Part shown: piece after piece, positions 42,953 through 61,084 of the stretch
Layout of the letters: each line of letters begins with the position of its first letter
How positions within the stretch are numbered: the stretch's first letter is position 1
Assembly (NCBI GenBank): GCA_037310415.1
Contig: CP147780.1
Span: forward strand, 1,536,001 to 1,600,000
DNA length: 64,000 nt
Origin: Candidatus Atabeyarchaeum deiterrae
Lineage (GTDB): Archaea; Asgardarchaeota; Atabeyarchaeia; Atabeyarchaeales; Atabeyarchaeaceae
Reading direction: 5' to 3'
Made by a program: the position numbers and the translations under genes
Notes under the pieces: model-generated
What the model saw: the letters and a program-made list of their open reading frames with translations, nothing else
What the model was told of the DNA's origin: nothing
Databases searched by the model: none

Positions 42953-45154
42953 CTATGTGACTTGTCTTGAGGGGTTTCCGTAGAGGATTGGTTTAACCCA
43001 ATTCTGATCTTCAATTCCCTTCTCTCTGATGAATCGCATCCTTGCTTCCCTAAGGGCTTCGCCCACAGGCTTCTTGTTTTTGAGAAGCTCGACGTAGAAA
43101 ACCTCTGTCAATGCTAGCATGGAGTCTGTGAGTGCGTCAGCCGCGACTCCAATGAAACAATCTGGACCAGCGAGTTTAGTGCTGGAAGCCAAGGTGTATA
43201 TGATGCGGTCTTGTTGCCTCCCGTCCCATTTGCGTTCCCATGGTGGAGAATGGACATACGAAACAACGAGTTGCGGATATCTGCTCTTGAAGAGCTTCCT
43301 GAGTTCATGCCCCCTGACTTCTCCATCGTAACATATCCAGGAACTTGCTGTCGGATCCCCCGAGCTCACGGCAGCCGAGCTAATCATGTGAATTATATCG
43401 TACTTCCCTGACGAAAGTAGAGCTATGATCTCCTGTTTCTTAAGCAAGCCCCTCAAGCTATCAGCCTTCACTCTCACGTTTCCAAAGGACTTCTCATCGG
43501 TAAAGAACTTCTCAAGCAGTCCACCGAAGTCACTAGAGGTCGACGACGGTTCTTTCTCAACCCTGCTATCGATAAACAGTATTGACAAAGGTTCATTGTC
43601 GCTTCGAGTTCGTGGTGTTGGTTCTTCCTTGTCTTCGTCAATGGCAGAACCAGGTTCTTCCGTAACCCACCTTGACATGGGTTTCTTCAGGCATAGAAAA
43701 TCTTGACCATCATACAACATCTCCATTGGCACATTAAGGAGATCTTTGTCAACTTCAAGGGCAATGAACTTAGGGTCATCCTCAGTTACTCTTGAAATGA
43801 TGCTCTTGTTGAACATGGTATTCAGGATTGACCCGCCCAACTTCTTCATTTCATCCAAATAACCTAGAGCCATCTTCCGCCTCATGTCTTGTGCACTAAC
43901 GGATGCAGTCCTCGTGTCCAAGTTGGCTCGGAGTCGATCGGCTTCCTTGCTCATTGTTTTGAGAGCATATTCATCAATTGGGATTACTGTCATGTAAACT
44001 GCGCTGACTTTCTCGGGGGCAAAGACAAGCTCAAACTGGTTCTTATGTCTTGTCAAACCCAAGTATCCGACATTCTTACCGATAGTGTCAGCACTACCTC
44101 CGAGAATCAACTTTGCTTCAAATCGGTCCCGCGGATTCGGCATAAATGATTCGACGCGGGCTTTCGCCGAAGAGCTAATGTGATCCGTAGCGTCGATATA
44201 GAATTGTTCCAATGTCTCCTTTACAGCCTCGAGTGAAGTAACATCTTTCTGTCCCAGTATTATGGGGGCAGAGTCTCTGAAACGCCTGAACAATGGAACG
44301 ATTTTCTTCTCAGGAGTGTCTGCGGGGATCGCCAGAGACACGAGATACGAGACTCCAAATTGATCGCGTATCGCTGTGTGGCAACTCAGTAAGTAGAAAT
44401 CGTCAGTCCTCGCCGAGACGAAGCTGGGTGCGCTCTCTCCTGGGGGATGCATGCTTGCGATAATCTTCATTTCCTTGGGTTCCATTGAGAATACTCGGGG
44501 AAACGTTCCTTCCAGGGTTGGTTCAAATCCTTCTGAAGTACCAAGTAGCGCGATCCACATACGTGTCAATTCGGATGGTGCCTGCGGTATTTCCTGCAGT
44601 GCTATTGTTCTTTGTACCAAGTCGACCATTAAACCTTGAAAAGCTTCGGGGACGCCCACACCCGTTGTCGAAACAACTTCAAAAACTCTGTGACCTTTCA
44701 CACTAGATAGCTCGCTAAATTCTGACGGCGTAATCAACTCTTCGCCGAGGTCACGTTTATTCAGCACGAAGACCGTGAGCAGGTCTCGAAAGGAATCACC
44801 CAAGGTGGATGAAAGCTCTTCCATACTGGTTACATTGCTAGTCATTTTGCCTCTCTGCGAATCAGCCACGAATACGATTGCATCAGAGCCTTGAAGAAGG
44901 ATCTTTCTCTCCCTTGAGCAACCATCTGATCCACCGACAGCGAAAAAATCATAAAAGACACCCCCACCGGTTGACAGAGAGGCATAGTCGAAGTATACGG
45001 TCTGACCATAATCGTTCTCGACTGACGTGAAGCCTCCCTTATTCAGTTGGCCAGCATTATCGTAGTACCATTTTACCATGGTTGTCTTGCCTGAGGCGAA
45101 AGGCCCCCATAGCACGATCTTGAAGTGTATGTGCCCTGATTCATCACGGTTCAT
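42953..45154 (-). CDS. Fusion protein: MglA-like small GTPase + longin/uDENN-like domain + CHAT (caspase-like) domain
   Basis: N-term KIVLWGPFASGKTT, YFDY, DAIVFVADS, NKRD; middle region GFEPTLEGTFP; C-term VPMEMLYDG.DFLCL, YDIIH, FY..LL....VGEALREAR, W...ILYGNP. Confidence 0.8.
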   Translation of the reverse strand: MNRDESGHIHFKIVLWGPFASGKTTMVKWYYDNAGQLNKGGFTSVENDYGQTVYFDYASLSTGGGVFYDFFAVGGSDGCSRERKILLQGSDAIVFVADSQRGKMTSNVTSMEELSSTLGDSFRDLLTVFVLNKRDLGEELITPSEFSELSSVKGHRVFEVVSTTGVGVPEAFQGLMVDLVQRTIALQEIPQAPSELTRMWIALLGTSEGFEPTLEGTFPRVFSMEPKEMKIIASMHPPGESAPSFVSARTDDFYLLSCHTAIRDQFGVSYLVSLAIPADTPEKKIVPLFRRFRDSAPIILGQKDVTSLEAVKETLEQFYIDATDHISSSAKARVESFMPNPRDRFEAKLILGGSADTIGKNVGYLGLTRHKNQFELVFAPEKVSAVYMTVIPIDEYALKTMSKEADRLRANLDTRTASVSAQDMRRKMALGYLDEMKKLGGSILNTMFNKSIISRVTEDDPKFIALEVDKDLLNVPMEMLYDGQDFLCLKKPMSRWVTEEPGSAIDEDKEEPTPRTRSDNEPLSILFIDSRVEKEPSSTSSDFGGLLEKFFTDEKSFGNVRVKADSLRGLLKKQEIIALLSSGKYDIIHMISSAAVSSGDPTASSWICYDGEVRGHELRKLFKSRYPQLVVSYVHSPPWERKWDGRQQDRIIYTLASSTKLAGPDCFIGVAADALTDSMLALTEVFYVELLKNKKPVGEALREARMRFIREKGIEDQNWVKPILYGNPSRQVT

Positions 45155-50782: not shown

Positions 50783-52444
50783 GTGATGACTGACACGGCC
50801 GATGGAAAGAGACCTTGGACCAAGCGCTATGACCCCCATGTTCCACCATCCGTCAATATCCCTGAAGTTTTCATTCATGAAAGTCTAGAGCATGATGCAA
50901 GAAGCTTCCCGAATAGGCTGGGCTTGGGATTCTTTGGAAACAACATAACCTTCGCTGAGTTTGATTCTCTCGCAGGCAAGTTTGCCTCGTCCCTTTTGAG
51001 ACTGGGGGTTAGGGAGGGAGATCGAGTTGTAGTGCACCTTCCCAATATTCCTCAATACCCAATCTCATTGTACGGCGTTCTGAAGATTGGTGCAGCGTCA
51101 ATAGGATGCAGTATCTTGTACAAGACCCCTGAGCTTGTCCATCTACTGAATGATTCTGGTGCAGAGACTATTGTAACATTGGACTCAAGTCTGCCGACGA
51201 TCATGGAAGTGAAGGGCAGGACGAAACTACGCAACGTGATCGCAACGGGTCTAGGAGATTTCATAGCTCTCGGAAAGAAAATGCGCGAGTCTAGATCAAA
51301 ACCGACCAAATCCGATTATCATAGTTACCTTAGGTTGATCGAGCAAGAGGAGAACCTAAGTACTCGACTCAAGGGAGACCCTAAGAACACACCTGCGCTC
51401 ATACAATATACCGGAGGCACAACAGGCGTACCCAAGGGAGTTGTTCTAACCCATTATAATCTCTTGGCTAATATGACTCAAGTCAAGATATGGGCTGCTC
51501 TTGAATATGGTGAAGATTCCACGCTCAGCGTATTCCCGTTTTTTCATCAAGCGGGGCAGATATTCCTTCTCATGTCAGTCCACTTGGCCGCGACGCAAGT
51601 ACTCTACCCGAACCCCAGGGATCTCTTCATGGCTGTACAGTTGATCGGTGAAAGGAAACCTACGATCATTGCGGCAGTTCCAACATGGTATATCTTATTG
51701 CTCCGCAGCCCGTACGCACGAAAATGTGATTTTTCGGGCGTGAAGCTGTTCATAAGTGGAGCCGCCCCATTCCCCGCTGAGCAGATAAATGAATTCAAAC
51801 GTGCCACGGGAAAGGAGCTAATAGAAGTGTACGGGTTAACTGAAGCCAGTCCCCTGATAACAGTGAATCCATTCTATGGAAGGAAAAAAGTCGGATCCGT
51901 GGGTTTGCCTCTTCCGAACACGGACGTGAAGCTTCTCGACATTGAAAATGGGAAGGAGGTTGAAGTAGGAAAACCTGGAGAGCTTGTCACAAAAGGTCCA
52001 CAAGTAATGGTAGGCTACTTAAATCAGCCTGATGAGACCGCCAAGACACTGAGAGATGGCTGGTTGTACACTGGAGACGTAGCGACAATGGATGGAGACG
52101 GATACTTCTACATAGTTGACAGAACGAAAGACATGATCAATGTCAGCGGGTACAAAGTCTTTCCTCGTGAAGTTGATGAAGTCATAACCACTCATGAAGC
52201 AGTATCAGTGGCTGCCACTGTCGGAATCCCAAACCCAGATCGTCCAGGCAGCGAGATTGTGAAAAGCTTCATTGTTCTAAGAGACGGCTATGCTCCGTCT
52301 GATGAACTCAAGGAAGAAATAGAAAAGTTCCTCAAGGACAGGCTGGCAACGTTTAAGGTTCCTAGGATAGTAGAGTTTAGAAAAGAGCTTCCACTGACAC
52401 TGATTGGAAAAGTCCTCAAGAGGGCTTTGCGCGATGGCCAGTAA
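50783..52444 (+). CDS. Long-chain acyl-CoA synthetase (second paralog)
   Basis: YTGGTTGVPKG, EVYGLTE, TGD, DRTKDMINVSGYKVFPREV, GKVLKR. Confidence 0.95.
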   Translation: MMTDTADGKRPWTKRYDPHVPPSVNIPEVFIHESLEHDARSFPNRLGLGFFGNNITFAEFDSLAGKFASSLLRLGVREGDRVVVHLPNIPQYPISLYGVLKIGAASIGCSILYKTPELVHLLNDSGAETIVTLDSSLPTIMEVKGRTKLRNVIATGLGDFIALGKKMRESRSKPTKSDYHSYLRLIEQEENLSTRLKGDPKNTPALIQYTGGTTGVPKGVVLTHYNLLANMTQVKIWAALEYGEDSTLSVFPFFHQAGQIFLLMSVHLAATQVLYPNPRDLFMAVQLIGERKPTIIAAVPTWYILLLRSPYARKCDFSGVKLFISGAAPFPAEQINEFKRATGKELIEVYGLTEASPLITVNPFYGRKKVGSVGLPLPNTDVKLLDIENGKEVEVGKPGELVTKGPQVMVGYLNQPDETAKTLRDGWLYTGDVATMDGDGYFYIVDRTKDMINVSGYKVFPREVDEVITTHEAVSVAATVGIPNPDRPGSEIVKSFIVLRDGYAPSDELKEEIEKFLKDRLATFKVPRIVEFRKELPLTLIGKVLKRALRDGQ

Positions 52445-52472
52445 GAACAAGACGTGATCGGCTTTCGTCCGT

Positions 52473-52880
52473 TTATCCTTCTCTCTCAGACATTGCCATA
52501 AATATCCTATCATTCGTCCTGTTAAGCTCCAAGAATGTCATTCCAAGACTAGCTTCTTTTCTGATGAAGACTGAAAGAATCATGTCCCTGCCGCTTCTAG
52601 TAAGCACAATGTCCCCGGTACCCCCACTAACAACAACTCTCTTCAAGTCTCCCAATCCTAGGTTTCTCAGAACGTTGTCACCTATGTTGAGGAGAGCAGC
52701 AGACATCGCGGCGGCCAATGAAGCATCCGATAGTCTAGGTGACCAAGAAGATATGATTAGCCCATCACTCTTTACGAGTGTTGCGCCATCTATTCCCTTC
52801 GTCGCCGTGCATAGATCCATCAGCGTTCTTTTTAGTCTGTCCCTCAGACTTGAATCACTTGCGGCCAAAGTGGAATTCAC
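52473..52880 (-). CDS. Roadblock/LC7 protein
   Basis: IDGATLVKSDGLIISS...AAAMSAALL..G....LG.G.L..VVV.G..G......SLGM. Confidence 0.93.
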   Translation of the reverse strand: MNSTLAASDSSLRDRLKRTLMDLCTATKGIDGATLVKSDGLIISSWSPRLSDASLAAAMSAALLNIGDNVLRNLGLGDLKRVVVSGGTGDIVLTRSGRDMILSVFIRKEASLGMTFLELNRTNDRIFMAMSEREG

Positions 52881-52921
52881 CTTCTTGCACTACGTTGACT
52901 TGACAGGCTGCTCATTCAAAA

Positions 52922-53509
52922 TCAGTTCGAGGTCATTGCCTTTTCTTTCATGAGCTTAAGAAGAGATAGTAGAGCTTCTTTGATCCCTTCTCCGGTCAGT
53001 CCTGATCCCTCAATGAACTTTACTGAATCAACTTTCATGAGGTTCTTCAAAGCGTCTGCTCTCATTGCATTGTCGAGATCCTGCTTGTTTGCCACCACAA
53101 CCATAGGGACGTCCACTCCAAGGAATCCTTTTACTTCCTCATAGATCGCTATTGCGTGTCCGACCTGACCGGGTGCCGTACTATCAACAATAAAAAGGAC
53201 GCCCTTGGCTCCCCTGCTTGTGGCTTCTCTCACGGGAGACATATGGATCTGTCCAGGGCTTCCCATCAGCATCACACGGGTAAAACTGCAACTATTCGAC
53301 TTGACCTCATTGTCATGTCGAAGCTCGTCAGCTCCATCCCACCAAATGTGCCCAAGATCAAATGCAAGCGTTGTCGTACTTCCATCTGGCAAAACCTTCT
53401 CTACGCTTGTGGCCTTAGTGTCCAAGAAGTGAACTAGGGTTGTCTTGCCTGCATGGTATGGTCCAGCGACGAAGATCTTGAAACACTTGTCCCTCTTGTC
53501 ATCAGTCAA
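52922..53509 (-). CDS. Small GTPase (MglA/CvnD-like)
   Basis: G1 GPYHAGKTT, TTLAFDLG, G3 GSPGQ, GVLFIVDS, G4 NKQD, G5 SGLTGEGI; ATGA overlap with the upstream Roadblock gene. Confidence 0.93.
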   Translation of the reverse strand: MTDDKRDKCFKIFVAGPYHAGKTTLVHFLDTKATSVEKVLPDGSTTTLAFDLGHIWWDGADELRHDNEVKSNSCSFTRVMLMGSPGQIHMSPVREATSRGAKGVLFIVDSTAPGQVGHAIAIYEEVKGFLGVDVPMVVVANKQDLDNAMRADALKNLMKVDSVKFIEGSGLTGEGIKEALLSLLKLMKEKAMTSN

Positions 53510-53898
53510 TGAATCTCATCTCCATCAAGAAGTTCAGCTATTCTACCTGATGCTTTCTGCAAGGCCAAGTGGATCAGCCCCAGACCAACCTTCGAACGAG
53601 CTGTTCCAATTATGAGCTGGCGTCTGCCAGCGCTTCTGACCACAGTGACGCCGTCATCCGCCTGTATCGTGACTTGGGAGAGTTTCCCCTGCCTCAGCTC
53701 AACAACGGTTCGCTCGCCCATTGCAAGTATTGCTGCCGCCATCGCAGAGAGCAAACTTTCTTTTTCTGGGTCACTTATCGCTGAACATATCGGCAATCCG
53801 TCGTCACTGACAATGCATGTGGCATCCAGACTACCTGACTGAACTGTATCTTGAAGCACTTGATTTAACTTCATCTGTTTGTTAAGGCCCTCAGACAT
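53506..53898 (-). CDS. Roadblock/LC7 protein
   Basis: CIVSDDGLPICSA...LSAMAAAILAMGERTVVELRQGKL.QV.I..DDG...LGLI. Confidence 0.93.
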   Translation of the reverse strand: MSEGLNKQMKLNQVLQDTVQSGSLDATCIVSDDGLPICSAISDPEKESLLSAMAAAILAMGERTVVELRQGKLSQVTIQADDGVTVVRSAGRRQLIIGTARSKVGLGLIHLALQKASGRIAELLDGDEIH

Positions 53899-54183
53899 AA
53901 ACGACCCACCAATTCCTACAGAATTACGGGAGGGGTGACTACCTCTTTTTCACATTCCCACTGATCATATTAGAACCATTTCATGCGGTTAAAAAGATAG
54001 TTAGATTCAAGCATTGTGTTTCGCACTTGCGTGCGAATATCGCAAATTACGACGCTTATGCCTCCATTCTTATTGCCGACAAGGCAGCTGCCAATGAGAG
54101 CTTATCAGTGGACAGTTGCAGGCTCAGCTTGTTTGCTTCAGACGCATGGCTCTCTCACTTACTTACCTGGCGTGAGAATCAGC

Positions 54184-54978
54184 TTACGCGATTCCTTGCA
54201 CAGGCACAACTATTATTCCTTGGTCGGCGATTACCATTTCGAATTCCTTCATACTATGCTTGACGCCTCTCATTTTTCGTATAACCAGCTTTCTCTTGAA
54301 TTCTCTGCCTCTGGACTCAAGAGCCAAGAAGATAATACCAGTAGCCAGGAATTCCTCAACACCAAACCTACTAAGTGCAGCCGATCCTTCAACGGTCTCT
54401 GTTGTCATCAGCGTAGTGCAGTCAAGGTTTCTCAGAAAAGTGTTAAGTCGCATTAACGTTGCTCGCATGGTCTCTGGATGTGTGAACAAACCAATCCCGG
54501 GGATTGAATCCACAACCAACCGTTTTGCCGAGATAGCCTGTACTGCAGCAGCCAAATCGTCTATTATTCCGATGACCTTCTCTACAGAGCTATCAAGGGT
54601 CCATTTCTCGGGATCCTGCAGATCAAGACGACCTGTAATTGCGTCAAGAAGGACAAGTTTTCCGTCCTTTTCAAGTCTTAACAGGTCCCAACCGAAACGA
54701 GCGGCGTTTCTCCTAATTTCGTACAATGGTTCCTCGAAACTGGCATAGACTCCATGTTCTCCGTATTTGAGAGCGCCATTCACCAAGTACTGCAAACAGA
54801 AGATCGTTTTTCCACTTCCTGTTCCTCCCGTGACGAGGCTTCGGGAATTCTTCGGAAGGCCCCCCTCAAGAAGCTCGTCGAATCCTTGAATGCCGGTAGG
54901 AACTCTTTCATTTCGCTTCTCTACGTTCATTTCTTCAACCCCAAGATTCTCTTCACTTCCACTTAAGTGTGCAATCAA
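54184..54978 (-). CDS. KaiC/RAD55-like single-domain ATPase
   Basis: RVPTGI.GFD.LL.GG, Walker A GGTGSGKT, SFEE, LVVDSI, VEEFLATGII.L, IRKMRG; start may be ATG 54930. Confidence 0.93.
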   Translation of the reverse strand: MIAHLSGSEENLGVEEMNVEKRNERVPTGIQGFDELLEGGLPKNSRSLVTGGTGSGKTIFCLQYLVNGALKYGEHGVYASFEEPLYEIRRNAARFGWDLLRLEKDGKLVLLDAITGRLDLQDPEKWTLDSSVEKVIGIIDDLAAAVQAISAKRLVVDSIPGIGLFTHPETMRATLMRLNTFLRNLDCTTLMTTETVEGSAALSRFGVEEFLATGIIFLALESRGREFKRKLVIRKMRGVKHSMKEFEMVIADQGIIVVPVQGIA

Positions 54979-55318
54979 CTATGCGGCGAATAAGGTTCGA
55001 AGTGACATTACACAGGTCAAAACAGACCATGCTGTCTCCCCCACTTATTGAGATGAGCTGGTGAATTGATAAATCTGTTCTGCAATCATCATTAGCAGGC
55101 TGAATGCGTTAGGAAATTCGCAATCATTTAGCAACGCTTTTATCCAAACATCCCGTCGAGTATTGTGTGATGTGCACTACGGTAGCTTGTGGATGAGAAG
55201 GGGACCCGTAACAGTTTTCATTTCGATCGTGGCAGTGCTCCGAGTGAAAGTGAACCTCGAATCAATCTGGTTGTCGGAGGGAGCGCCTTTCAACAACTGC
55301 ATTGTGTCGTGATTTAGA

Positions 55319-55909
55319 ATGATATACGACCTATACGTGATCTCGAACCAGAATGGATGCTGCATCTATCACCAAGGTTTTGGAACAACCCTCGTAAACA
55401 GCGATCTAGTGGCTGGCTTGCTGACAGCCATGTTGTCATTCATGAAAGAGGTTCGAGGCGATGAAATGAAGGTCATGATTTCAGGAAACTCAAAATTCGT
55501 CTTCAATCAGTCCCCAGGTCTGATATTCGTAGCTCTGGTTGACCTCAACCCTGACGAGCACGATGTCTCAATGTTCCTTGAGGAAGTAAAGAAGCTATTC
55601 ACTGAGAAGTATCCGGAAAAGGACCAAGTTCAGCCTCTCAGTGGAGACGATCCTATCTCACAAGAGATCGCTCAGCTGCTCTTCACCTCAGATAAACCAA
55701 CTGGTAAAGCTAAGCCGCCGCTCGTACTCGGACGAAGATTGTCCAAGCTCATTGCGCCTGAATTGGCAGTTCAGAAGGATGCACTGACCAATCTCTATGG
55801 GAGAGTTGCTAAGTCAAAGGATTGCAGGGGAAAGGATCATGACTTAGAGGAGAAGTACAGAAAGGAGATTGAGAATCTGAACAGATTGATCGAAGAAACT
55901 CAAAATTAG
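55319..55909 (+). CDS. Longin-domain protein (Asgard type) with C-terminal helical extension
   Basis: MIYDLYVIS..NG.CIY...F......DLVAGLLTAM.SF.KE....MK.M......FVF.....LIFV..VD......V..FL..V...F..KY. Confidence 0.8.
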   Translation: MIYDLYVISNQNGCCIYHQGFGTTLVNSDLVAGLLTAMLSFMKEVRGDEMKVMISGNSKFVFNQSPGLIFVALVDLNPDEHDVSMFLEEVKKLFTEKYPEKDQVQPLSGDDPISQEIAQLLFTSDKPTGKAKPPLVLGRRLSKLIAPELAVQKDALTNLYGRVAKSKDCRGKDHDLEEKYRKEIENLNRLIEETQN

Positions 55910-55946
55910 ACAAGATGTTGAAATTCGAAAAGGAGAATATGCGGCC

Positions 55947-56543
55947 ATGCTGAAATCTGTCGAGATTCTGAACCTACTGGCAGCCAGACAGTTCGACGGT
56001 TGGATGAGACCTGGAATCAAAACCAAGCTTCGCCCCAAGTTGGGAAATACTATTGACCTTTATGCATCGCAGGAACGTGTCCCTGGAATGCTAGCATTAA
56101 GTCAATCCATGGGACCAGTCCTTTTTGAGGTTGGAAAGAAAGTAGCGTCCCACATTGCTGAGAGGACCATACCTCTACTTAAGGGAATATCGGGATACCA
56201 TCGATTCGCCGAATCTAACACAATCGAAGAGGCAAGACAATCGAGTGAATTCACTATATTCCAAATGATATACCAAGGAACCCTCACTGGGCTTCTGAAA
56301 CTAGTCGCATACGCGAAAAACAAGTTAATAGTCATTCAGGTTGAGGAGTGTGCTGATTGTACAGGAATGGTCAACTTGGGAAGGAGCATTTGCTACTTCG
56401 TAGGAGGCGAAATTACTGGCGCGGTTGAGGTTGCGCTGGGGAAGAGCCTGGGATACGTTGAGACAAAGTGCACGGTCAAAGGTGACCAGTGTTGCGAATT
56501 CAGATTGACAGTTCCGCAAGAGCAGGGAGGAGTATTCAGATGA
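55947..56543 (+). CDS. V4R (4VR) domain protein, paralog 1
   Basis: R..LG..IDL, ECADC, ICYFVGG.I.G, VETKC..KGD..CEF. Confidence 0.9.
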   Translation: MLKSVEILNLLAARQFDGWMRPGIKTKLRPKLGNTIDLYASQERVPGMLALSQSMGPVLFEVGKKVASHIAERTIPLLKGISGYHRFAESNTIEEARQSSEFTIFQMIYQGTLTGLLKLVAYAKNKLIVIQVEECADCTGMVNLGRSICYFVGGEITGAVEVALGKSLGYVETKCTVKGDQCCEFRLTVPQEQGGVFR

Positions 56544-57193
56544 AAAGTTTAAGCACTCGTCATTCAGAAAGGGGTCCCACCTTGATCACTGAAAAACTTC
56601 TGGAAGCCATTGGTAGAATGCAGTATGAGAAATTCTTAGGTTCTGTTGACAAGTTCGAACCTCGCAAAAAACTTGGTGACAATGTTGACTTGTTATCTTT
56701 TCAGGAACGTGTGCTTGGTGTCTTGTCACTAAGTCAATCTATGGGACCCATCCTTTTCGAGGCAGGCAAGAAACCTGCACTATACATGGCCGAAGAGATG
56801 TGGCCTGAGGCTAGGAAGCAACCAAACTTTCACAGCATGGGCGACGCTAACGATCTGGACGAAGCAAGGCTTTCGGATGAGTTCACAGTTCTTCAGAGTT
56901 TTCTCGAAACGACCCGCCTCGGACTTCTTAGCCTAAGCGCGTTCGAGAAGAACAAGTCAATTCAATTTGAAGTTGATGAATGCGCGATATGCTATGGAGT
57001 TGGTAACTTGGGAAGAACCAAGTGTTATTTTCTTGGCGGAATCATCGCTGGTACTCTTGAAGGCACGCTCGGCAGAAGGGTGGGTTTTTCTGAATCAAAG
57101 TGTTGCGCAAATGGCGATCCCATCTGTGAATTCAGATATAGCCTATTAGGAACCAAGAACGATGAACGAAATGGTGAACAAGAAAGTGAATAA
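56540..57193 (+). CDS. V4R domain protein, paralog 2
   Basis: RKKLGDNVDL, ECAIC, KCYFLGGIIAG, ESKC...GD..CEF; ATG 56540 overlaps the paralog-1 stop (ATGA). Confidence 0.9.
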   Translation: MKSLSTRHSERGPTLITEKLLEAIGRMQYEKFLGSVDKFEPRKKLGDNVDLLSFQERVLGVLSLSQSMGPILFEAGKKPALYMAEEMWPEARKQPNFHSMGDANDLDEARLSDEFTVLQSFLETTRLGLLSLSAFEKNKSIQFEVDECAICYGVGNLGRTKCYFLGGIIAGTLEGTLGRRVGFSESKCCANGDPICEFRYSLLGTKNDERNGEQESE

Positions 57194-57207
57194 CTATTAA
57201 AGGTGTT

Positions 57208-57816
57208 ATGTTTTTGAGAGAGAAGGAGCTTTTCAAAGAACTGGCGAAAACGCAAGTCGGGCGAATATTGCACACCCCAGGATACAAGAGCAAGATACGC
57301 GGAAGACTTGGAGACTCGGTTGACTTGTTGACTTACCAGAGACCACTGCTTGGAGTTCTGATTCTGGCTGAGTCCATGAGTTCAGTGCTTTTCGAGGCTG
57401 GAAAGAGGACCGGAATTCAGCTTACTGAAGGCGGCATGCCGTTACTTCAGCAACTTCCAGATTACCGTGACTTTGCAGAAGCGAAGAATCTAGAGGAAGC
57501 AAAACTCTCAACCGGATATGCTGTTCTTAAAATGGCATTCGAATTATCTGGAACGGGTCTGATAGACCTGACCCAATTCAAGAAGGACAAACTTGCTGTT
57601 TATCAAGTCAATGAGTGCGCAGACTGTTATGGCATCAGGGACCTAGAAAAAAGCATTTGCCACTTTATTGGGGGCGTGATTGCTGGTGCACTTGAGTATG
57701 CACTAAAGAAAACGGTAGGGTTTGTTGAAACGATGTGCCAGGCTAAGGGTGACTCCTGTTGCGAATTCACATACACGATCAAACGAGTGGAGAGCAAGAA
57801 TGATCAGGTTAGCTGA
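57208..57816 (+). CDS. V4R domain protein, paralog 3
   Basis: RGRLGDSVDL, ECADC, ICHFIGGVIAG, VETMC..KGD..CEF. Confidence 0.9.
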   Translation: MFLREKELFKELAKTQVGRILHTPGYKSKIRGRLGDSVDLLTYQRPLLGVLILAESMSSVLFEAGKRTGIQLTEGGMPLLQQLPDYRDFAEAKNLEEAKLSTGYAVLKMAFELSGTGLIDLTQFKKDKLAVYQVNECADCYGIRDLEKSICHFIGGVIAGALEYALKKTVGFVETMCQAKGDSCCEFTYTIKRVESKNDQVS

Positions 57817-57884
57817 AGTACGATGAGAGATAGAAAACGTGAACAGAATAATTGAAGGAACAGAAGAAAGCATGAAACAAATAA

Positions 57885-58481
57885 GTGTCGAAAGGTTGGT
57901 GTAGCCTATTGAAGGCAGACGAAATCCTTGATGCGCTGGCCAGTAGGCAATTCAAGAGGCTGGTGAGCAACCCCAGCCCTCAAGCTAAGCTTAGGAAGAG
58001 GCTCGGTAACAACATTGACATGTGGGCATATCAGGAACGCGTAATCGGGATGCTCGCCCTAAGCAAATCCATGGGACCAGTCCTGTTTGAAGCGGGTAAA
58101 AAAGTCGGAAAGTCCCTCAGCAAGAAAGCAGTGTTAATGTTTAGGAAGTTGCCGAATTACAGGAGTTTCATCGAATGCAAGACACTGGAGGAAGCTCAGC
58201 GTTCAACTGAGTGGTCGATAGTTCAGGCGATGTATCAAATGACTGCCACTGGAATCATAAACATGGTCAAATACGAGAAAGGGAAACTCTTGGTCTTTCA
58301 AGTTGAGGAGTGTGTTTCCTGCTCAGGGCTTCCCAACCTCGGGGAAAGCGTGTGCTACTATCTCGGCGGACAGCTTTGTGGCGCAATTGAGATCATAATC
58401 GGAAAGAGTTTGGCCTTTGTTGAAACGAAGTGCCAAGCTAAGGGCGATACTTGTTGCGAGTTCAAGTACACAGTCCTATAA
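57885..58481 (+). CDS. V4R domain protein, paralog 4
   Basis: RKRLGNNIDM, ECVSCSGLPNLGESVCYYLGG, VETKC..KGD..CEF; start may be TTG 57909. Confidence 0.9.
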   Translation: MSKGWCSLLKADEILDALASRQFKRLVSNPSPQAKLRKRLGNNIDMWAYQERVIGMLALSKSMGPVLFEAGKKVGKSLSKKAVLMFRKLPNYRSFIECKTLEEAQRSTEWSIVQAMYQMTATGIINMVKYEKGKLLVFQVEECVSCSGLPNLGESVCYYLGGQLCGAIEIIIGKSLAFVETKCQAKGDTCCEFKYTVL

Positions 58482-58522
58482 GACGAATTGCATATGGATT
58501 ATAGGAGTGGAGTGAAACAGAA

Positions 58523-59320
58523 TTGGACAGACTATCCACTGGCATAGATGGGCTTGACGAACTGATACAAGGCGGATTAATAAGTGGATCATCAACGCTA
58601 CTCTACGGACCGCCTGGGAACGGGAAACACCCATTTTGCCTCCAGTTTATCGCAGAAGGATTGAAAGTTGGTGACGGTGGAATAATGTTGGTCTCAAATG
58701 AGTCCGTCCAAGATGCAATAGAAAGCTTCGGAGAAGTAGGGTGTAGCTTGGATACTACAGTATTGGATCAGAAATACGATCTGAAGTTCGTTGACTGCTA
58801 CAGTTGGCGGATTGAAGAGGTTCCTTACCCAAAGTTGTATGGAAATGTGGTCAAGTCATCAATGGATATCAATCATGTTTCTTTGGCTATAGGCACGGCT
58901 GTCGATCAGATGAAGGCTGGCAAAAGAATTCGAGTCACAGTAGACCTGTTTTCCCCGCTCCTAATGGTTGCTCCCCCACAGGCTGTCTATAGACTTGGTG
59001 AACTTCTGACAGCCGAACTGAAGAAGAAAGGCGCAACCTCGATATTTATGTTGACGGAGGGAATGCATGACCAGCAGACGATAACGTCTCTTCAACAGTT
59101 GATCGACAATGTGGTGCTCTTTAGAAACTCTGAGAAGGAAGGGGTTCTCATAAAGGAAGTCTGCGTGAGCAAAATGAAGCGAACAGTCTTCGAATCGAGA
59201 TGGCTGCCGATATTCAGGGATACAAAGACAGGGGGGCTAAGGATCGCGCAGGAAAGTCAGAAGACGGACTTGTTCAGTAGCGGTGAGAGATACTTGAAAA
59301 CAGGCAGACTTTCTACCTGA
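58523..59320 (+). CDS. KaiC/RAD55-like ATPase with degenerate motifs
   Basis: RLSTGIDGLDELI.GG, GPPGNGKH, FVDCYS, VTVD, HD......L..L.D.V, VSKMKR. Confidence 0.88.
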   Translation: MDRLSTGIDGLDELIQGGLISGSSTLLYGPPGNGKHPFCLQFIAEGLKVGDGGIMLVSNESVQDAIESFGEVGCSLDTTVLDQKYDLKFVDCYSWRIEEVPYPKLYGNVVKSSMDINHVSLAIGTAVDQMKAGKRIRVTVDLFSPLLMVAPPQAVYRLGELLTAELKKKGATSIFMLTEGMHDQQTITSLQQLIDNVVLFRNSEKEGVLIKEVCVSKMKRTVFESRWLPIFRDTKTGGLRIAQESQKTDLFSSGERYLKTGRLST

Positions 59321-59563
59321 TGAAAGTAGTCGCAAAGATGACGATCGCGCTCAAAGGAGCATTCTACGTTGATGAAGGCGACCCGAGTTTGAGACGCGAG
59401 GAAGCGGAATAAGTCATATCGTGAGGCTGGATTTCTCCGTTTTGAGATTCTTGACAGTTTTGCTCAGAACCAAATCAAACAGGGCTGACAATCGAATGAT
59501 GCTGAAGATACTCAAGGATCTTTCTTGACCTGCAGTCATCCGTGCATAATGGAGGCTTCTTGA

Positions 59564-60315
59564 GTGAAGGTCGTATATCACGAAGGATACCGGGAAGTCT
59601 ATGCTGACGATCCTGCTTCTGCTCCTGGCCGAATGGAATCCATACTTGAGGCACTAGGTGACTCGTTCCCAATCGTTGAGCCGGTGGAGGCTGGCGAGGA
59701 CGCATTATTACTTGTTCATACTGCAGGTCACTTGCGTTTCGTGAAGGGGCTAGGGATTGTAGACAGGATAGCTAAACTTGCTGTTGGTGGGGCATTAACT
59801 GCGGCTGAGCTCGCAATGAAAGGCGAGGCGGCATTCGCTCTCATTAGACCGCCAGGGCATCACGCCAGCGCCGATTCCTGTTGGGGATTCTGCTATTTCA
59901 ACAACGTGGCGATTGCCATCGAGAAACTTCTGAGAGAGGGACAAATAGAGAAAGCAGTGATACTGGACTTCGACTTACACTTTGGCGATGGAACTAGCAA
60001 TATCTTCACAGGGAAATCAGAGGTAGCGTATTACCATGCTCCGCGTACCAACACTGCAGAATCCATCCGAGGCTATCTCACAGAAGTCGGAGAGCGCGAC
60101 ATAATCGCTGTATCTGCCGGATTCGATAGGCACGTGGAGGATGGGGCGGAACGCTGAGAACAGAGGACTACAAGAGAATAGGAGAAATAGTAAGCGAATA
60201 CGCCAAGGAGAACACGGAAGGAAGACAGTTCGCAGCACTTGAAGGAGGGTATAATCACAAGGTTCTTGGCGTTAACGTCAAAACGTTTATTGAAGGGATG
60301 GAAAAAGGACAATAG
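59564..60315 (+). pseudogene. Histone deacetylase family protein interrupted by a 1-nt frameshift at about 60142
   Basis: RPPGHHA, GFCYFNN, DFDLHFGDGT, SAGFD in frame 1; WGG...LEGGY continues in the -1 frame to TAG 60315. Confidence 0.85.
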
Positions 60316-60322
60316 GGCACTA

Positions 60323-61084
60323 TCACGGAAGGCGTTCTGTTCTCAGTTGATAGAGCTCTACTTTGGCGCTTTTGCAGGATTGTCGGAGCATCCCCTTTGT
60401 CTTAAGGCATATGATTGCCTTTCGAGCTTTTTTTCTTGTTAGCTCCATATATCCTTCAGCGAGCTTGCAAACCTGTCCAACGGCTTGCTCAGTGGCAGTA
60501 ACCTCAACTTCAACAACGATAGGAGTGCCATTCTTGTCGACAAGTAATAGGTCGATTCTCCCAGTCGGAGTTGGATACTCACACCCGAGTACCCTAGCGC
60601 CTTCCTCCACCATTGAAGGCTCCATTGAGATGAGTTGGGTTAACAATTCTTCCGTTGGCATCCTCTTCTGGTGAAGTGCCGTCTCGACACCCAAACTTAG
60701 CGCATTACTCAAATGATCTTCAACACTCTCAACCTTCTCTTCCAAGGCATGCGGAAAAACGGCTACGGGCCTGTCGAGATTATCTCTGACTAGGAGGATG
60801 GGCGTATTGTTGAAGTTTAGGTTCTTAGTTCCAGAGAGTGCCAAGATCATTCCTCCTCCGCTGACCACCCGCCCCCTTACCTGTGGAGGAATGCTTCGTA
60901 TGTCAGTGGCTATCTTCTCCTGATCTACATCTGTAAGTCGCAAAGCATCCACAACTATAGTCGTCACGGTTTCCTCTTTGACCTTGAGCTTCTCCAAGAG
61001 ATCCTTGGCGGAGCCAGCAGAGGAGCCTCCAGCGCCAGAATTCTTCAAATAGAGAGAGTATTTGTAGACGTTCTTTTCAGTCAT
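60323..61084 (-). CDS. Protein with C-terminal NucS/EndoMS-like PD-(D/E)xK domain (degenerate) and unknown N-terminal domain
   Basis: E..L...I...P..VEEG..VLG.EYPTPTGRIDLLLVD..G..IVVEVE......AVGQ. Confidence 0.75.
   Translation of the reverse strand: MTEKNVYKYSLYLKNSGAGGSSAGSAKDLLEKLKVKEETVTTIVVDALRLTDVDQEKIATDIRSIPPQVRGRVVSGGGMILALSGTKNLNFNNTPILLVRDNLDRPVAVFPHALEEKVESVEDHLSNALSLGVETALHQKRMPTEELLTQLISMEPSMVEEGARVLGCEYPTPTGRIDLLLVDKNGTPIVVEVEVTATEQAVGQVCKLAEGYMELTRKKARKAIICLKTKGMLRQSCKSAKVELYQLRTERLP

Follow-up and report, generated by a model that had tools for sequence, protein, structure and literature searches.

The study locus, positions 52473–59320 of a 64-kb window (the whole stretch of DNA analyzed) from the closed 2,756,679-bp genome of Candidatus Atabeyarchaeum deiterrae (G000), contained ten contiguous genes belonging to two separately inherited modules, which were neighbors in this lineage alone: (i) module 1 (52473–53898), the trio RblA–GTPase–RblB, in which an MglA-like small GTPase gene was located between two Roadblock genes and (ii) module 2 (54184–59320), composed of KaiC1 and, divergent from it, the right arm longin–V4R1–V4R2–V4R3–V4R4–KaiC2. 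We read the locus as a composite of a common Roadblock–GTPase operon and a KaiC-centered V4R sensor module likely coupled to small GTPases, and assign this reading a probability of roughly 55%; gene content, motifs, folds, synteny, and co-decay were observed, and from them we infer all contacts and activities. A preliminary description, made from the window sequence, had presented the ten genes as a possible single system; the linkage of its two arms, on which that description had staked the claim, proved largely unconserved in related genomes.

The translated open reading frames (ORFs) of the window were all searched against relatives. G001 (CP147779.1; Atabeyarchaeia-1), the nearest relative of G000, harbored the trio RblA/GTPase/RblB at 62, 67, and 84% identity, respectively, with unchanged flanks (an Lrp/AsnC gene on one side and a NucS-like gene on the other), and ~700 nt alone lay between RblB and the NucS-like gene. 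The G001 counterparts of longin, three V4R genes, and KaiC2 (48, 67–76, and 57% identity, respectively) were located 640 kb from the trio, and KaiC1 was there a pseudogene, presented as scraps of residues 1–25 and 177–247 beside longin/V4R/KaiC2. G002, a third genome from the same family (94% complete), displayed upstream of RblB–GTPase–RblA a 17-residue C-terminal scrap of KaiC1 joined to the N-terminus of a histone deacetylase (HDAC)-like protein; this scar was collinear with the window, with ~5.3 kb (54305–59565) gone, and no close longin or V4R-array homolog was found in this 94% complete genome. The KaiC1 scrap and the HDAC junction indicate that the juxtaposition predated the G000/G002 split and that G002 later deleted module 2 and kept the trio. 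Synteny thus divided the proposed ten-gene unit: KaiC1 stayed linked to the right arm, while the trio adjoined module 2 only in G000, with the scar in G002 as its other trace. No boundary repeats were found around the relocated block, and a paper on mobile elements of Atabeyarchaeia (PMC11529989) mentioned neither KaiC nor V4R.

Module 2 was found only in Atabeyarchaeia-like lineages, i.e., G000, G001, and ~13 metagenome contigs. There were 14 longin orthologs overall (48–67% identity), and those on 13 metagenome contigs had 53–67% identity. The genomic contexts fetched for comparison, from metagenome contigs or other Asgard genomes, are designated here by L numbers; seven contigs with longin orthologs and three more reached via KaiC1 orthologs were inspected. 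Wherever the flank was visible, KaiC1 was divergent from longin, which was followed by two to four V4R genes and then by KaiC2. This core order was seen in nine independent lineages (longin identity 53–67%), and such recurrence of the right-arm gene order is far beyond chance. The KaiC1 orthologs (71–79% identity) were always divergent from the longin gene, and the next gene after KaiC1 in L081, L082, L083, L084, L107, L108/109, and G001 was never Roadblock; it encoded a longin/winged helix-turn-helix (wHTH)-like protein of 248–271 aa, with a weak longin-like N-terminus and a weak wHTH-like C-terminus. A V4R-alignment-based search for related loci, run with narrow patterns, retrieved nothing besides G001 and Fibrobacterota proteins, the latter matched in their C-terminal V4R parts. 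In L118 (2–1025), a longin identical to P0003 (see below) was preceded by a same-strand 136-aa gene in place of the divergent KaiC1, which represented either a strain-level variant or an assembly difference.

The ancestral island was KaiC-rich: it additionally contained a further KaiC gene and genes for a small protein, a DUF7504 protein, and a PAS-kinase, and KaiC2 was followed by two paralogous genes plus a third KaiC gene; other pieces of this island were dispersed over the G000 chromosome. G000 encodes a longin/wHTH-like protein at 2635020–2635811 and Rag/Arf-like GTPases at 2107573–2108094 and 2115517–2116110. A partner-switching gene set (PAS-STAS, STAS, HATPase anti-sigma-like, and SpoIIE-HATPase) replaced the PAS-kinase of L081/L082 in L084 (146–2788). 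The two paralogous proteins (195–282 aa), encoded between a Rag/Arf-like GTPase gene and the third KaiC gene (L082 15113–16510; G000 2066011–2067395), belonged to no Pfam family, and the only lead from a feature search of the Atlas, a weak one with a score of 0.88, was a cluster containing NPR2. The relocated block was bounded on the right by a short HDAC-like gene (59564–60309, plus strand; Pfam Hist_deacetyl 8.3e-36, profile positions 78–170 of 298). Its interpretation as a random scar was rejected, since an HDAC-like gene was the regular right neighbor in this sub-lineage (L086 and G002); L086, the closest metagenomic relative, had the KaiC2–HDAC junction in common with the window. With tblastn, the 249-aa L086 protein aligned to the window gene in two segments whose frames differed and which met near 60142, and the gene is probably frameshifted in the window.

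In G000, 7 of the 12 V4R ORFs touched a KaiC gene, at four separate loci; since KaiC accounted for 27 ORFs, ~1% of genes, this KaiC–V4R linkage is well above chance. G000 carried a KaiC–V4R fusion (1708203–1709462), a KaiC/V4R pair with a 4-nt overlap (2600061–2601412), and a third adjacent pair (2067518–2068707), all Pfam-confirmed, and fusions were also found in G037 (four in tandem) and G140 (one). The G037 fusions (L075 9069–14364, from a closed 3.6-Mb Asgard genome) were encoded by four tandem genes of 423–434 aa followed by a GTPase-like gene, and they correspond, in fused form, to the KaiC gene and V4R array of the study locus.

The loss of KaiC1 in G001 gave a natural experiment on the remaining genes. 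The G001 longin deviated at 15 of 67 columns that were otherwise invariant in 14 other sequences, with the others deviating at 0–5%. The G001 V4R-A, V4R-B, V4R-C, and KaiC2 deviated at 1, 12, 11, and 8%, respectively, like their counterparts elsewhere (range for V4R-B/C: 9–20%), and an intact KaiC1 lay alongside in the closest relative whose longin was conserved (P0003, 76% identity). This co-decay event points to a KaiC1–longin pair and a V4R–KaiC2 group.

Asgard archaea encode dozens of small GTPases, together with Roadblock, longin, and V4R/TRAPPC3-like proteins. Small GTPase genes recurred both beside module 2 and beside V4R genes in these archaea, which bore out the association of GTPases with V4R-type genes in the preliminary description: (i) a Gtr1/RagA/Arf-type GTPase gene was located, convergent, right after KaiC2 in G001, L082, and L083, (ii) longin–GTPase fusions existed in G000, and (iii) in four further Asgard families, a V4R gene came first in a Roadblock–GTPase or GTPase operon. 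The last arrangement suggests that V4R proteins repeatedly serve as inputs for small-GTPase switches. Among individual loci, a V4R gene headed a Roadblock/MglA-like GTPase operon in L088 (9631–9993), L103 (4633–5286), and L104 (8099–8749), it overlapped a Ras-family GTPase gene in L078 (8446–9584), and XylR_N plus V4R was present in two cases of this four-locus set; L077 contained a V4R gene with a longin gene and an Arf/Rag-like GTPase gene. A 733-aa GTPase–longin-like fusion was also encoded elsewhere in the window (42953–45154), and it had a 57% identical ortholog at the equivalent position in G001 (L020 8513–10708), hence a conserved gene.

A different account takes module 2 as a self-contained KaiC/V4R sensor with a transcriptional output, for example through the longin/wHTH-like protein and a spacer palindrome, the adjoining GTPases being chance neighbors. 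It drew on the divergent spacer between KaiC1 and longin, which had been described as ~340 nt long (54979–55318); the divergent arrangement was confirmed, but the spacer spanned ~388 nt (54931–55318), with the KaiC1 ATG most likely at 54930, a start that gave a 248-aa product as in database record P0015. Alignment of seven orthologous spacers identified a conserved inverted-repeat element at 55109–55123, being a perfect TTGTG-N5-CACAA in G001 and L082 and a degenerate TTAGG-N5-CGCAA here, and an invariant TTTTAT box (55138–55143) ~25 nt downstream of it. The inverted repeat lay ~176 nt upstream of the longin ATG, with a further conserved block in the presumed long 5′ leader. The repeat and the box are a candidate operator and a candidate TATA box, respectively, which would fit a DNA-binding regulator. 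The same account is favored by weak wHTH-like matches of the KaiC1 neighbor in its 266–271-aa versions, by PAS-kinase or partner-switching genes flanking the island in relatives, and by the weakness of adjacency statistics in a 2.76-Mb genome with 37 GTPase ORFs. Against it, a GTPase gene directly adjoined module 2 in 5 of ~8 lineages with a visible flank (G000, the G002 scar, G001, L082, and L083), longin domains in G000 were fused to GTPases repeatedly, and the Asgard families in which V4R genes headed GTPase operons were unrelated. On balance, we consider a purely transcriptional output rather unlikely, though worth keeping in sight.

The V4R tree resolved well-supported orthogroups (A to D named), and the number of V4R copies varied from two to four across lineages. 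The four proteins encoded here on the plus strand were as follows: V4R1 (55947–56543; Pfam V4R 2.5e-11), an additional, fast-evolving orthogroup A copy that was sister to group A with a branch length of 0.6; V4R2 (56540–57193; 3.6e-13; 70% identity to its G001 ortholog) of orthogroup B; V4R3 (57208–57816; 5.4e-12; 67% identity to its G001 ortholog) of orthogroup C; and V4R4 (57885–58481; 4.9e-13), the G000 member of orthogroup A. C143, C146, C157, E180, C183, and C191 were invariant in all 21 V4R sequences, and V4R1 kept all these Cys residues and the Glu. C157, E180, C183, and C191 of V4R4 aligned residue-for-residue with the MopR zinc ligands C155, E178, C181, and C189, respectively, and V4R4 had an additional E-C-x2-C motif at 142–146. 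By sequence, the V4R proteins matched MopR, MJ1460, and MsvR (NCBIfam MsvR) and, in the Atlas, clusters of archaeal V4R proteins. Pfam TRAPP (PF04051) was not matched by any of the four V4R proteins at E ≤ 0.1, or genome-wide in G000 at E ≤ 0.01 in a search run without a positive control.

The V4R4 model (AlphaFold2; predicted local distance difference test [pLDDT] score 80.6) displayed the full V4R/Bet3 fold. Its VIA Z scores were 12.2–13.1 to MopR/PoxR/DmpR (root mean square deviation 2.7–3.0 Å over 140–142 residues), 9–11.3 to the eukaryotic Bet3-fold subunits TRAPPC3/5/6, and 10.0–10.7 to Thor TRAPPC3. The suggested kinship of the V4R proteins with TRAPP was therefore upheld in part: a Bet3-type fold was present, but the sensors scored higher, Pfam TRAPP was not matched, and the sequences grouped with MopR, MsvR, and MJ1460. 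Proteins of 485–543 aa with two tandem full V4R/Bet3-fold domains were widespread in Asgard families (L034 796–2427, L038 1120–2715, and ~15 more in L061 to L073); those of L034 and L038 had a thioredoxin-like N-terminus of ~110 aa with CxxC, and in L071 a small GTPase gene was located directly after a double-V4R gene.

The longin protein (55319–55909, plus strand; 196 aa) was the only one of the ten whose domain call fell below the Pfam threshold (Fuz_longin_1 2.5e-4), and the call was substantiated by its AlphaFold2 model (pLDDT 70) and by structure matches. The model had the order beta-beta-alpha-beta-beta-beta-alpha, with a longin domain at ~1–125 and two long C-terminal helices at 137–195. 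VIA Z scores were 15.6, 14.2, and 14.0 to TRAPPC4/Trs23, versus ≤13.4 to the COPI, AP, VAMP7, Fuzzy, and Mon1/Ccz1 longins; Foldseek placed TRAPPC1 at the top, and longin-domain matches overall had Z scores of 11–15.6. The modeled protein was accordingly of the Bet5/Trs23 longin type at the fold level only, and the expected resemblance to TRAPP longins was borne out at that level. Alignment by hhalign of the longin family with two V4R proteins having long N-termini (L077 and L079) gave no match, and a search for longer, fused longin relatives found none, which is weak evidence.

The eukaryotic TRAPP core is composed of two Bet3 chains, Trs31, Trs33, Bet5, Trs23, and Trs20, and acts as a guanine nucleotide exchange factor (GEF) for Rab1/Ypt1. 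The preliminary description had proposed, by analogy, a single proto-TRAPP/Ragulator-like machine with a V4R hetero-oligomer plus longin as GEF, the Roadblock pair as GTPase-activating protein, and KaiC as a hub. The folds of the longin and V4R4 models speak for such a machine, as do the presence of a V4R gene directly after longin in all nine lineages (a member of orthogroup A in six of the seven typed ones), the second longin-like gene beside KaiC1 in relatives, and the recurrence of GTPase genes beside module 2; a longin–TRAPPC3 fusion has been reported from Heimdall (Tran et al. 2024, PMC10933270), and a 265-aa V4R-bearing Asgard cluster in the Atlas resembled the longin model (a lead only). 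It is opposed by the linkage of the trio in G000 alone plus the G002 scar, by the higher scores of V4R4 to MopR/PoxR than to Bet3 proteins, and by the zinc site kept in the V4R proteins, which is replaced by a hydrogen bond in mouse TRAPPC3 (Tran et al. 2024, PMC10933270). The missing Pfam TRAPP match, a V4R number that varied between lineages and so misfits a fixed hetero-tetramer, and GTPases that were MglA-like or Rag/Arf-like and not Rab-like told against it as well. We regard the single machine as quite improbable.

A narrower proposal retains the TRAPP comparison for module 2: the longin/V4R(2–4)/pseudo-KaiC operon, joined by the second longin-like protein encoded in relatives, would form a KaiC-gated TRAPP-like platform that acts on the neighboring small GTPase, an MglA-like one here and a Rag/Arf-like one in most lineages. 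We hold this platform to be no better than a long shot. If true, longin/Bet3-based GTPase regulators would have had a prokaryotic precursor in such a platform, one still sensing a ligand via its V4R zinc sites.

The two KaiC proteins of module 2 differed in their motifs. KaiC1 (54184–54930, minus strand; single-domain KaiC-like ATPase, 248 aa; Pfam KaiC 3.9e-71, with matches to NCBIfam KaiC models) had an intact Walker A (GGTGSGKT), catalytic EE, and Walker B (VVDS), all kept in its orthologs, and it is apparently an active ATPase. KaiC2 (58523–59320, plus strand; 265 aa; Pfam KaiC 6.8e-27 and DUF7504 2.6e-11) had GPPGNGKH for Walker A (GPPGSWKH, GPPGSLKH, or GPPGHGKR in orthologs) and NE in place of the catalytic EE with one Glu lost; the motifs were degenerate in all six orthologs. 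Despite this, KaiC2 was conserved at 57–59% identity, and judged by its motifs it is a maintained, predicted catalytically dead pseudo-ATPase of the KaiC/DUF7504 type. The G001 KaiC2 ortholog gave a weak MEDS match below the Pfam threshold. A defense-system interpretation was dropped: PADLOC assigned no defense family, its sole match being one of KaiC1 to mad8 below threshold.

The operon of module 1 is common among Asgard archaea: orthologs of its GTPase were found in 65 of 400 Asgard genomes (E ≤ 1e-20), and in 20 of 20 sampled orthologous loci from different families, between one and four Roadblock genes adjoined the GTPase gene. The module, on the minus strand, contained RblA (52473–52880; Roadblock/LC7, 135 aa; Pfam Robl_LC7 1e-14), the last gene, which was conserved in position in G001/G002 at 62–64% identity; the MglA-like small GTPase gene (52922–53509; 195 aa, TTG start; Pfam Arf/Ras/ATP_bind_1); and RblB (53506–53898; Roadblock/LC7, 130 aa; Pfam Robl_LC7 1.3e-11), with 84–86% identity in G001/G002. 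The GTPase matched Thermus thermophilus MglA over its full length (E 1.4e-7), and Rab and Ras aligned only with its C-terminal half; the Rab-substrate analogy drawn earlier for this GTPase is not sustained, as it is MglA-like and not Rab-like. Its motifs were G1 GPYHAGKTT, G3 GSPGQ, and G4 NKQD, and the family kept G1, PGQ, and NKxD with a 25–40-aa insert after switch I. The Gln of GSPGQ was retained, no Arg aligned to the intrinsic finger of MglA, and orthologs had His, Lys, or Arg after FDLG. By homology, module 1 is most likely a switch of the MglA/MglB type, in which the Roadblock pair would set the nucleotide state of the GTPase. A second G000 cluster (L114; 722823–724811) was organized as Roadblock/Arf-like GTPase/Roadblock/Roadblock, and one of its Roadblock proteins also matched MAPKK1_Int (LAMTOR3/MP1-like; E 5.5e-7).

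All ten ORFs of the locus were confirmed, and Pfam supported nine of the domain calls, so the gene list of the preliminary description stood, with small corrections. The 4-nt overlap at 53506–53509, reported as ATGA, did exist, but its letters were TTGA since the GTPase gene starts with TTG. The V4R2 start was most likely 56540, giving a 4-nt overlap with V4R1, and the right-arm intergenic gaps were 37, −4, 14, 68, and 41 nt, which makes a tight operon. RblB and KaiC1 were separated by 285 nt (53899–54183). An Rfam search of 52000–60500 gave zero matches at E ≤ 1. From four metatranscriptome runs, one 224-nt contig mapped to the GTPase gene (52955–53178) and none mapped elsewhere at the locus, which is too thin for a claim of expression or co-transcription.

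Under the composite reading, the V4R proteins may bind a small ligand or sense redox state or metal via the conserved Cys3-Glu zinc site and the extra CxxC, and by analogy with the natural KaiC–V4R fusions, they would act on KaiC2 as a KaiC-fold scaffold. The longin protein and active KaiC1 would be a transducing pair passing the state on to a small GTPase, putatively the Rag/Arf-like GTPase next to KaiC2 in relatives and the MglA-like GTPase beside KaiC1 here after rearrangement; relocation beside the Roadblock/MglA-like operon may have created or exploited a GTPase link in the G000/G002 lineage. Several observations weigh against this composite reading: (i) the co-decay argument was a single event, (ii) the GTPase–KaiC and longin–KaiC adjacencies (2 observed vs. 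~0.7 and ~0.4 expected, respectively, given 37 GTPase, 27 KaiC, and 22 longin ORFs) were not clearly above chance, (iii) the adjoining GTPase varied in type and side and was missing in L081 and L086, and (iv) both G001 and G002 retained the trio without module 2, and G001 retained the right arm after losing KaiC1, so that none of these couplings is obligatory. Moreover, we know of no ligand for an archaeal V4R protein of this type.

Archaeal KaiC-like ATPases, both active and inactivated, were reportedly described by Makarova, Galperin and Koonin in 2017 as hubs with V4R, Roadblock, and small GTPase neighbors. The study locus was like those signaling neighborhoods in having active and inactive single-domain KaiCs with sensor-type proteins, as well as KaiC–V4R fusions and pairs, and differed by the fixed order longin, V4R-A, further V4Rs, and pseudo-KaiC2 opposite active KaiC1, and by the TRAPPC4-like longin. 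Compared to the MglA/MglB switch of Myxococcus xanthus and Thermus thermophilus and to archaeal/bacterial Roadblock–GTPase operons, module 1 shared an MglA-like GTPase flanked by Roadblocks and a G3 PGQ without the canonical Asp, whereas it had no Arg at the MglA finger position, the 25–40-aa insert, and two different Roadblocks instead of one homodimeric MglB. The phenol-sensing V4R domains of MopR/PoxR/DmpR and the redox regulator MsvR were the nearest parallels of the V4R proteins, with the best structural matches of V4R4 and zinc ligands at identical positions; unlike them, the V4Rs here stood alone without an AAA+ or DNA-binding domain, had the added E-C-x2-C, and came in arrays of two to four.

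The comparison with the TRAPP core and Thorarchaeota TRAPPC3 (PDB 7yh3; Tran et al. 2024) showed shared Bet3/V4R-fold paralogs and a Trs23/TRAPPC4-like longin, but the system here, known from genes and models, had zinc-site sensor V4Rs in variable copy number, no Rab-type GTPase, and KaiC ATPases, which TRAPP lacks. Ragulator-Rag/GATOR was paralleled by the Gtr1/RagA-type GTPase beside module 2 in relatives and by the longin and Roadblock folds nearby; the archaeal GTPase, however, had no C-terminal Roadblock domain as in Rag, and no Ragulator-like pentamer was evident. Structures of Asgard Rab, Roadblock, and TRAPPC3 have been solved (Tran et al. 2024, PMC10933270), and the same work found that MK-D1 GTPases were generally not in operons with Roadblock, longin, and TRAPPC3-like regulators, so that GTPase partners were not assignable from genome layout there. 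A literature search found no description of a longin/V4R/pseudo-KaiC operon, nor of KaiC, Roadblock, and GTPase combined in Asgard archaea, and the longin–V4R–pseudoKaiC operon appears undescribed.

The apparently new part is this conserved longin–V4R–pseudoKaiC operon, and KaiC-centered signaling and the Roadblock–GTPase operon are the known part. The ten-gene picture, striking as it is, represents a lineage-specific juxtaposition, and it cautions against proto-TRAPP claims made from the gene order of one genome. The analysis supplies candidate partners, namely a Trs23-like longin, V4R orthogroups A to D, active and dead KaiC proteins, an MglA-like GTPase with two Roadblocks, and a Rag/Arf-like GTPase, and the natural knock-outs in G001 and G002 hint at which of these parts depend on each other. 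Through this operon, a link of archaeal ATPase signaling to eukaryote-like trafficking folds becomes testable in Asgard archaea.

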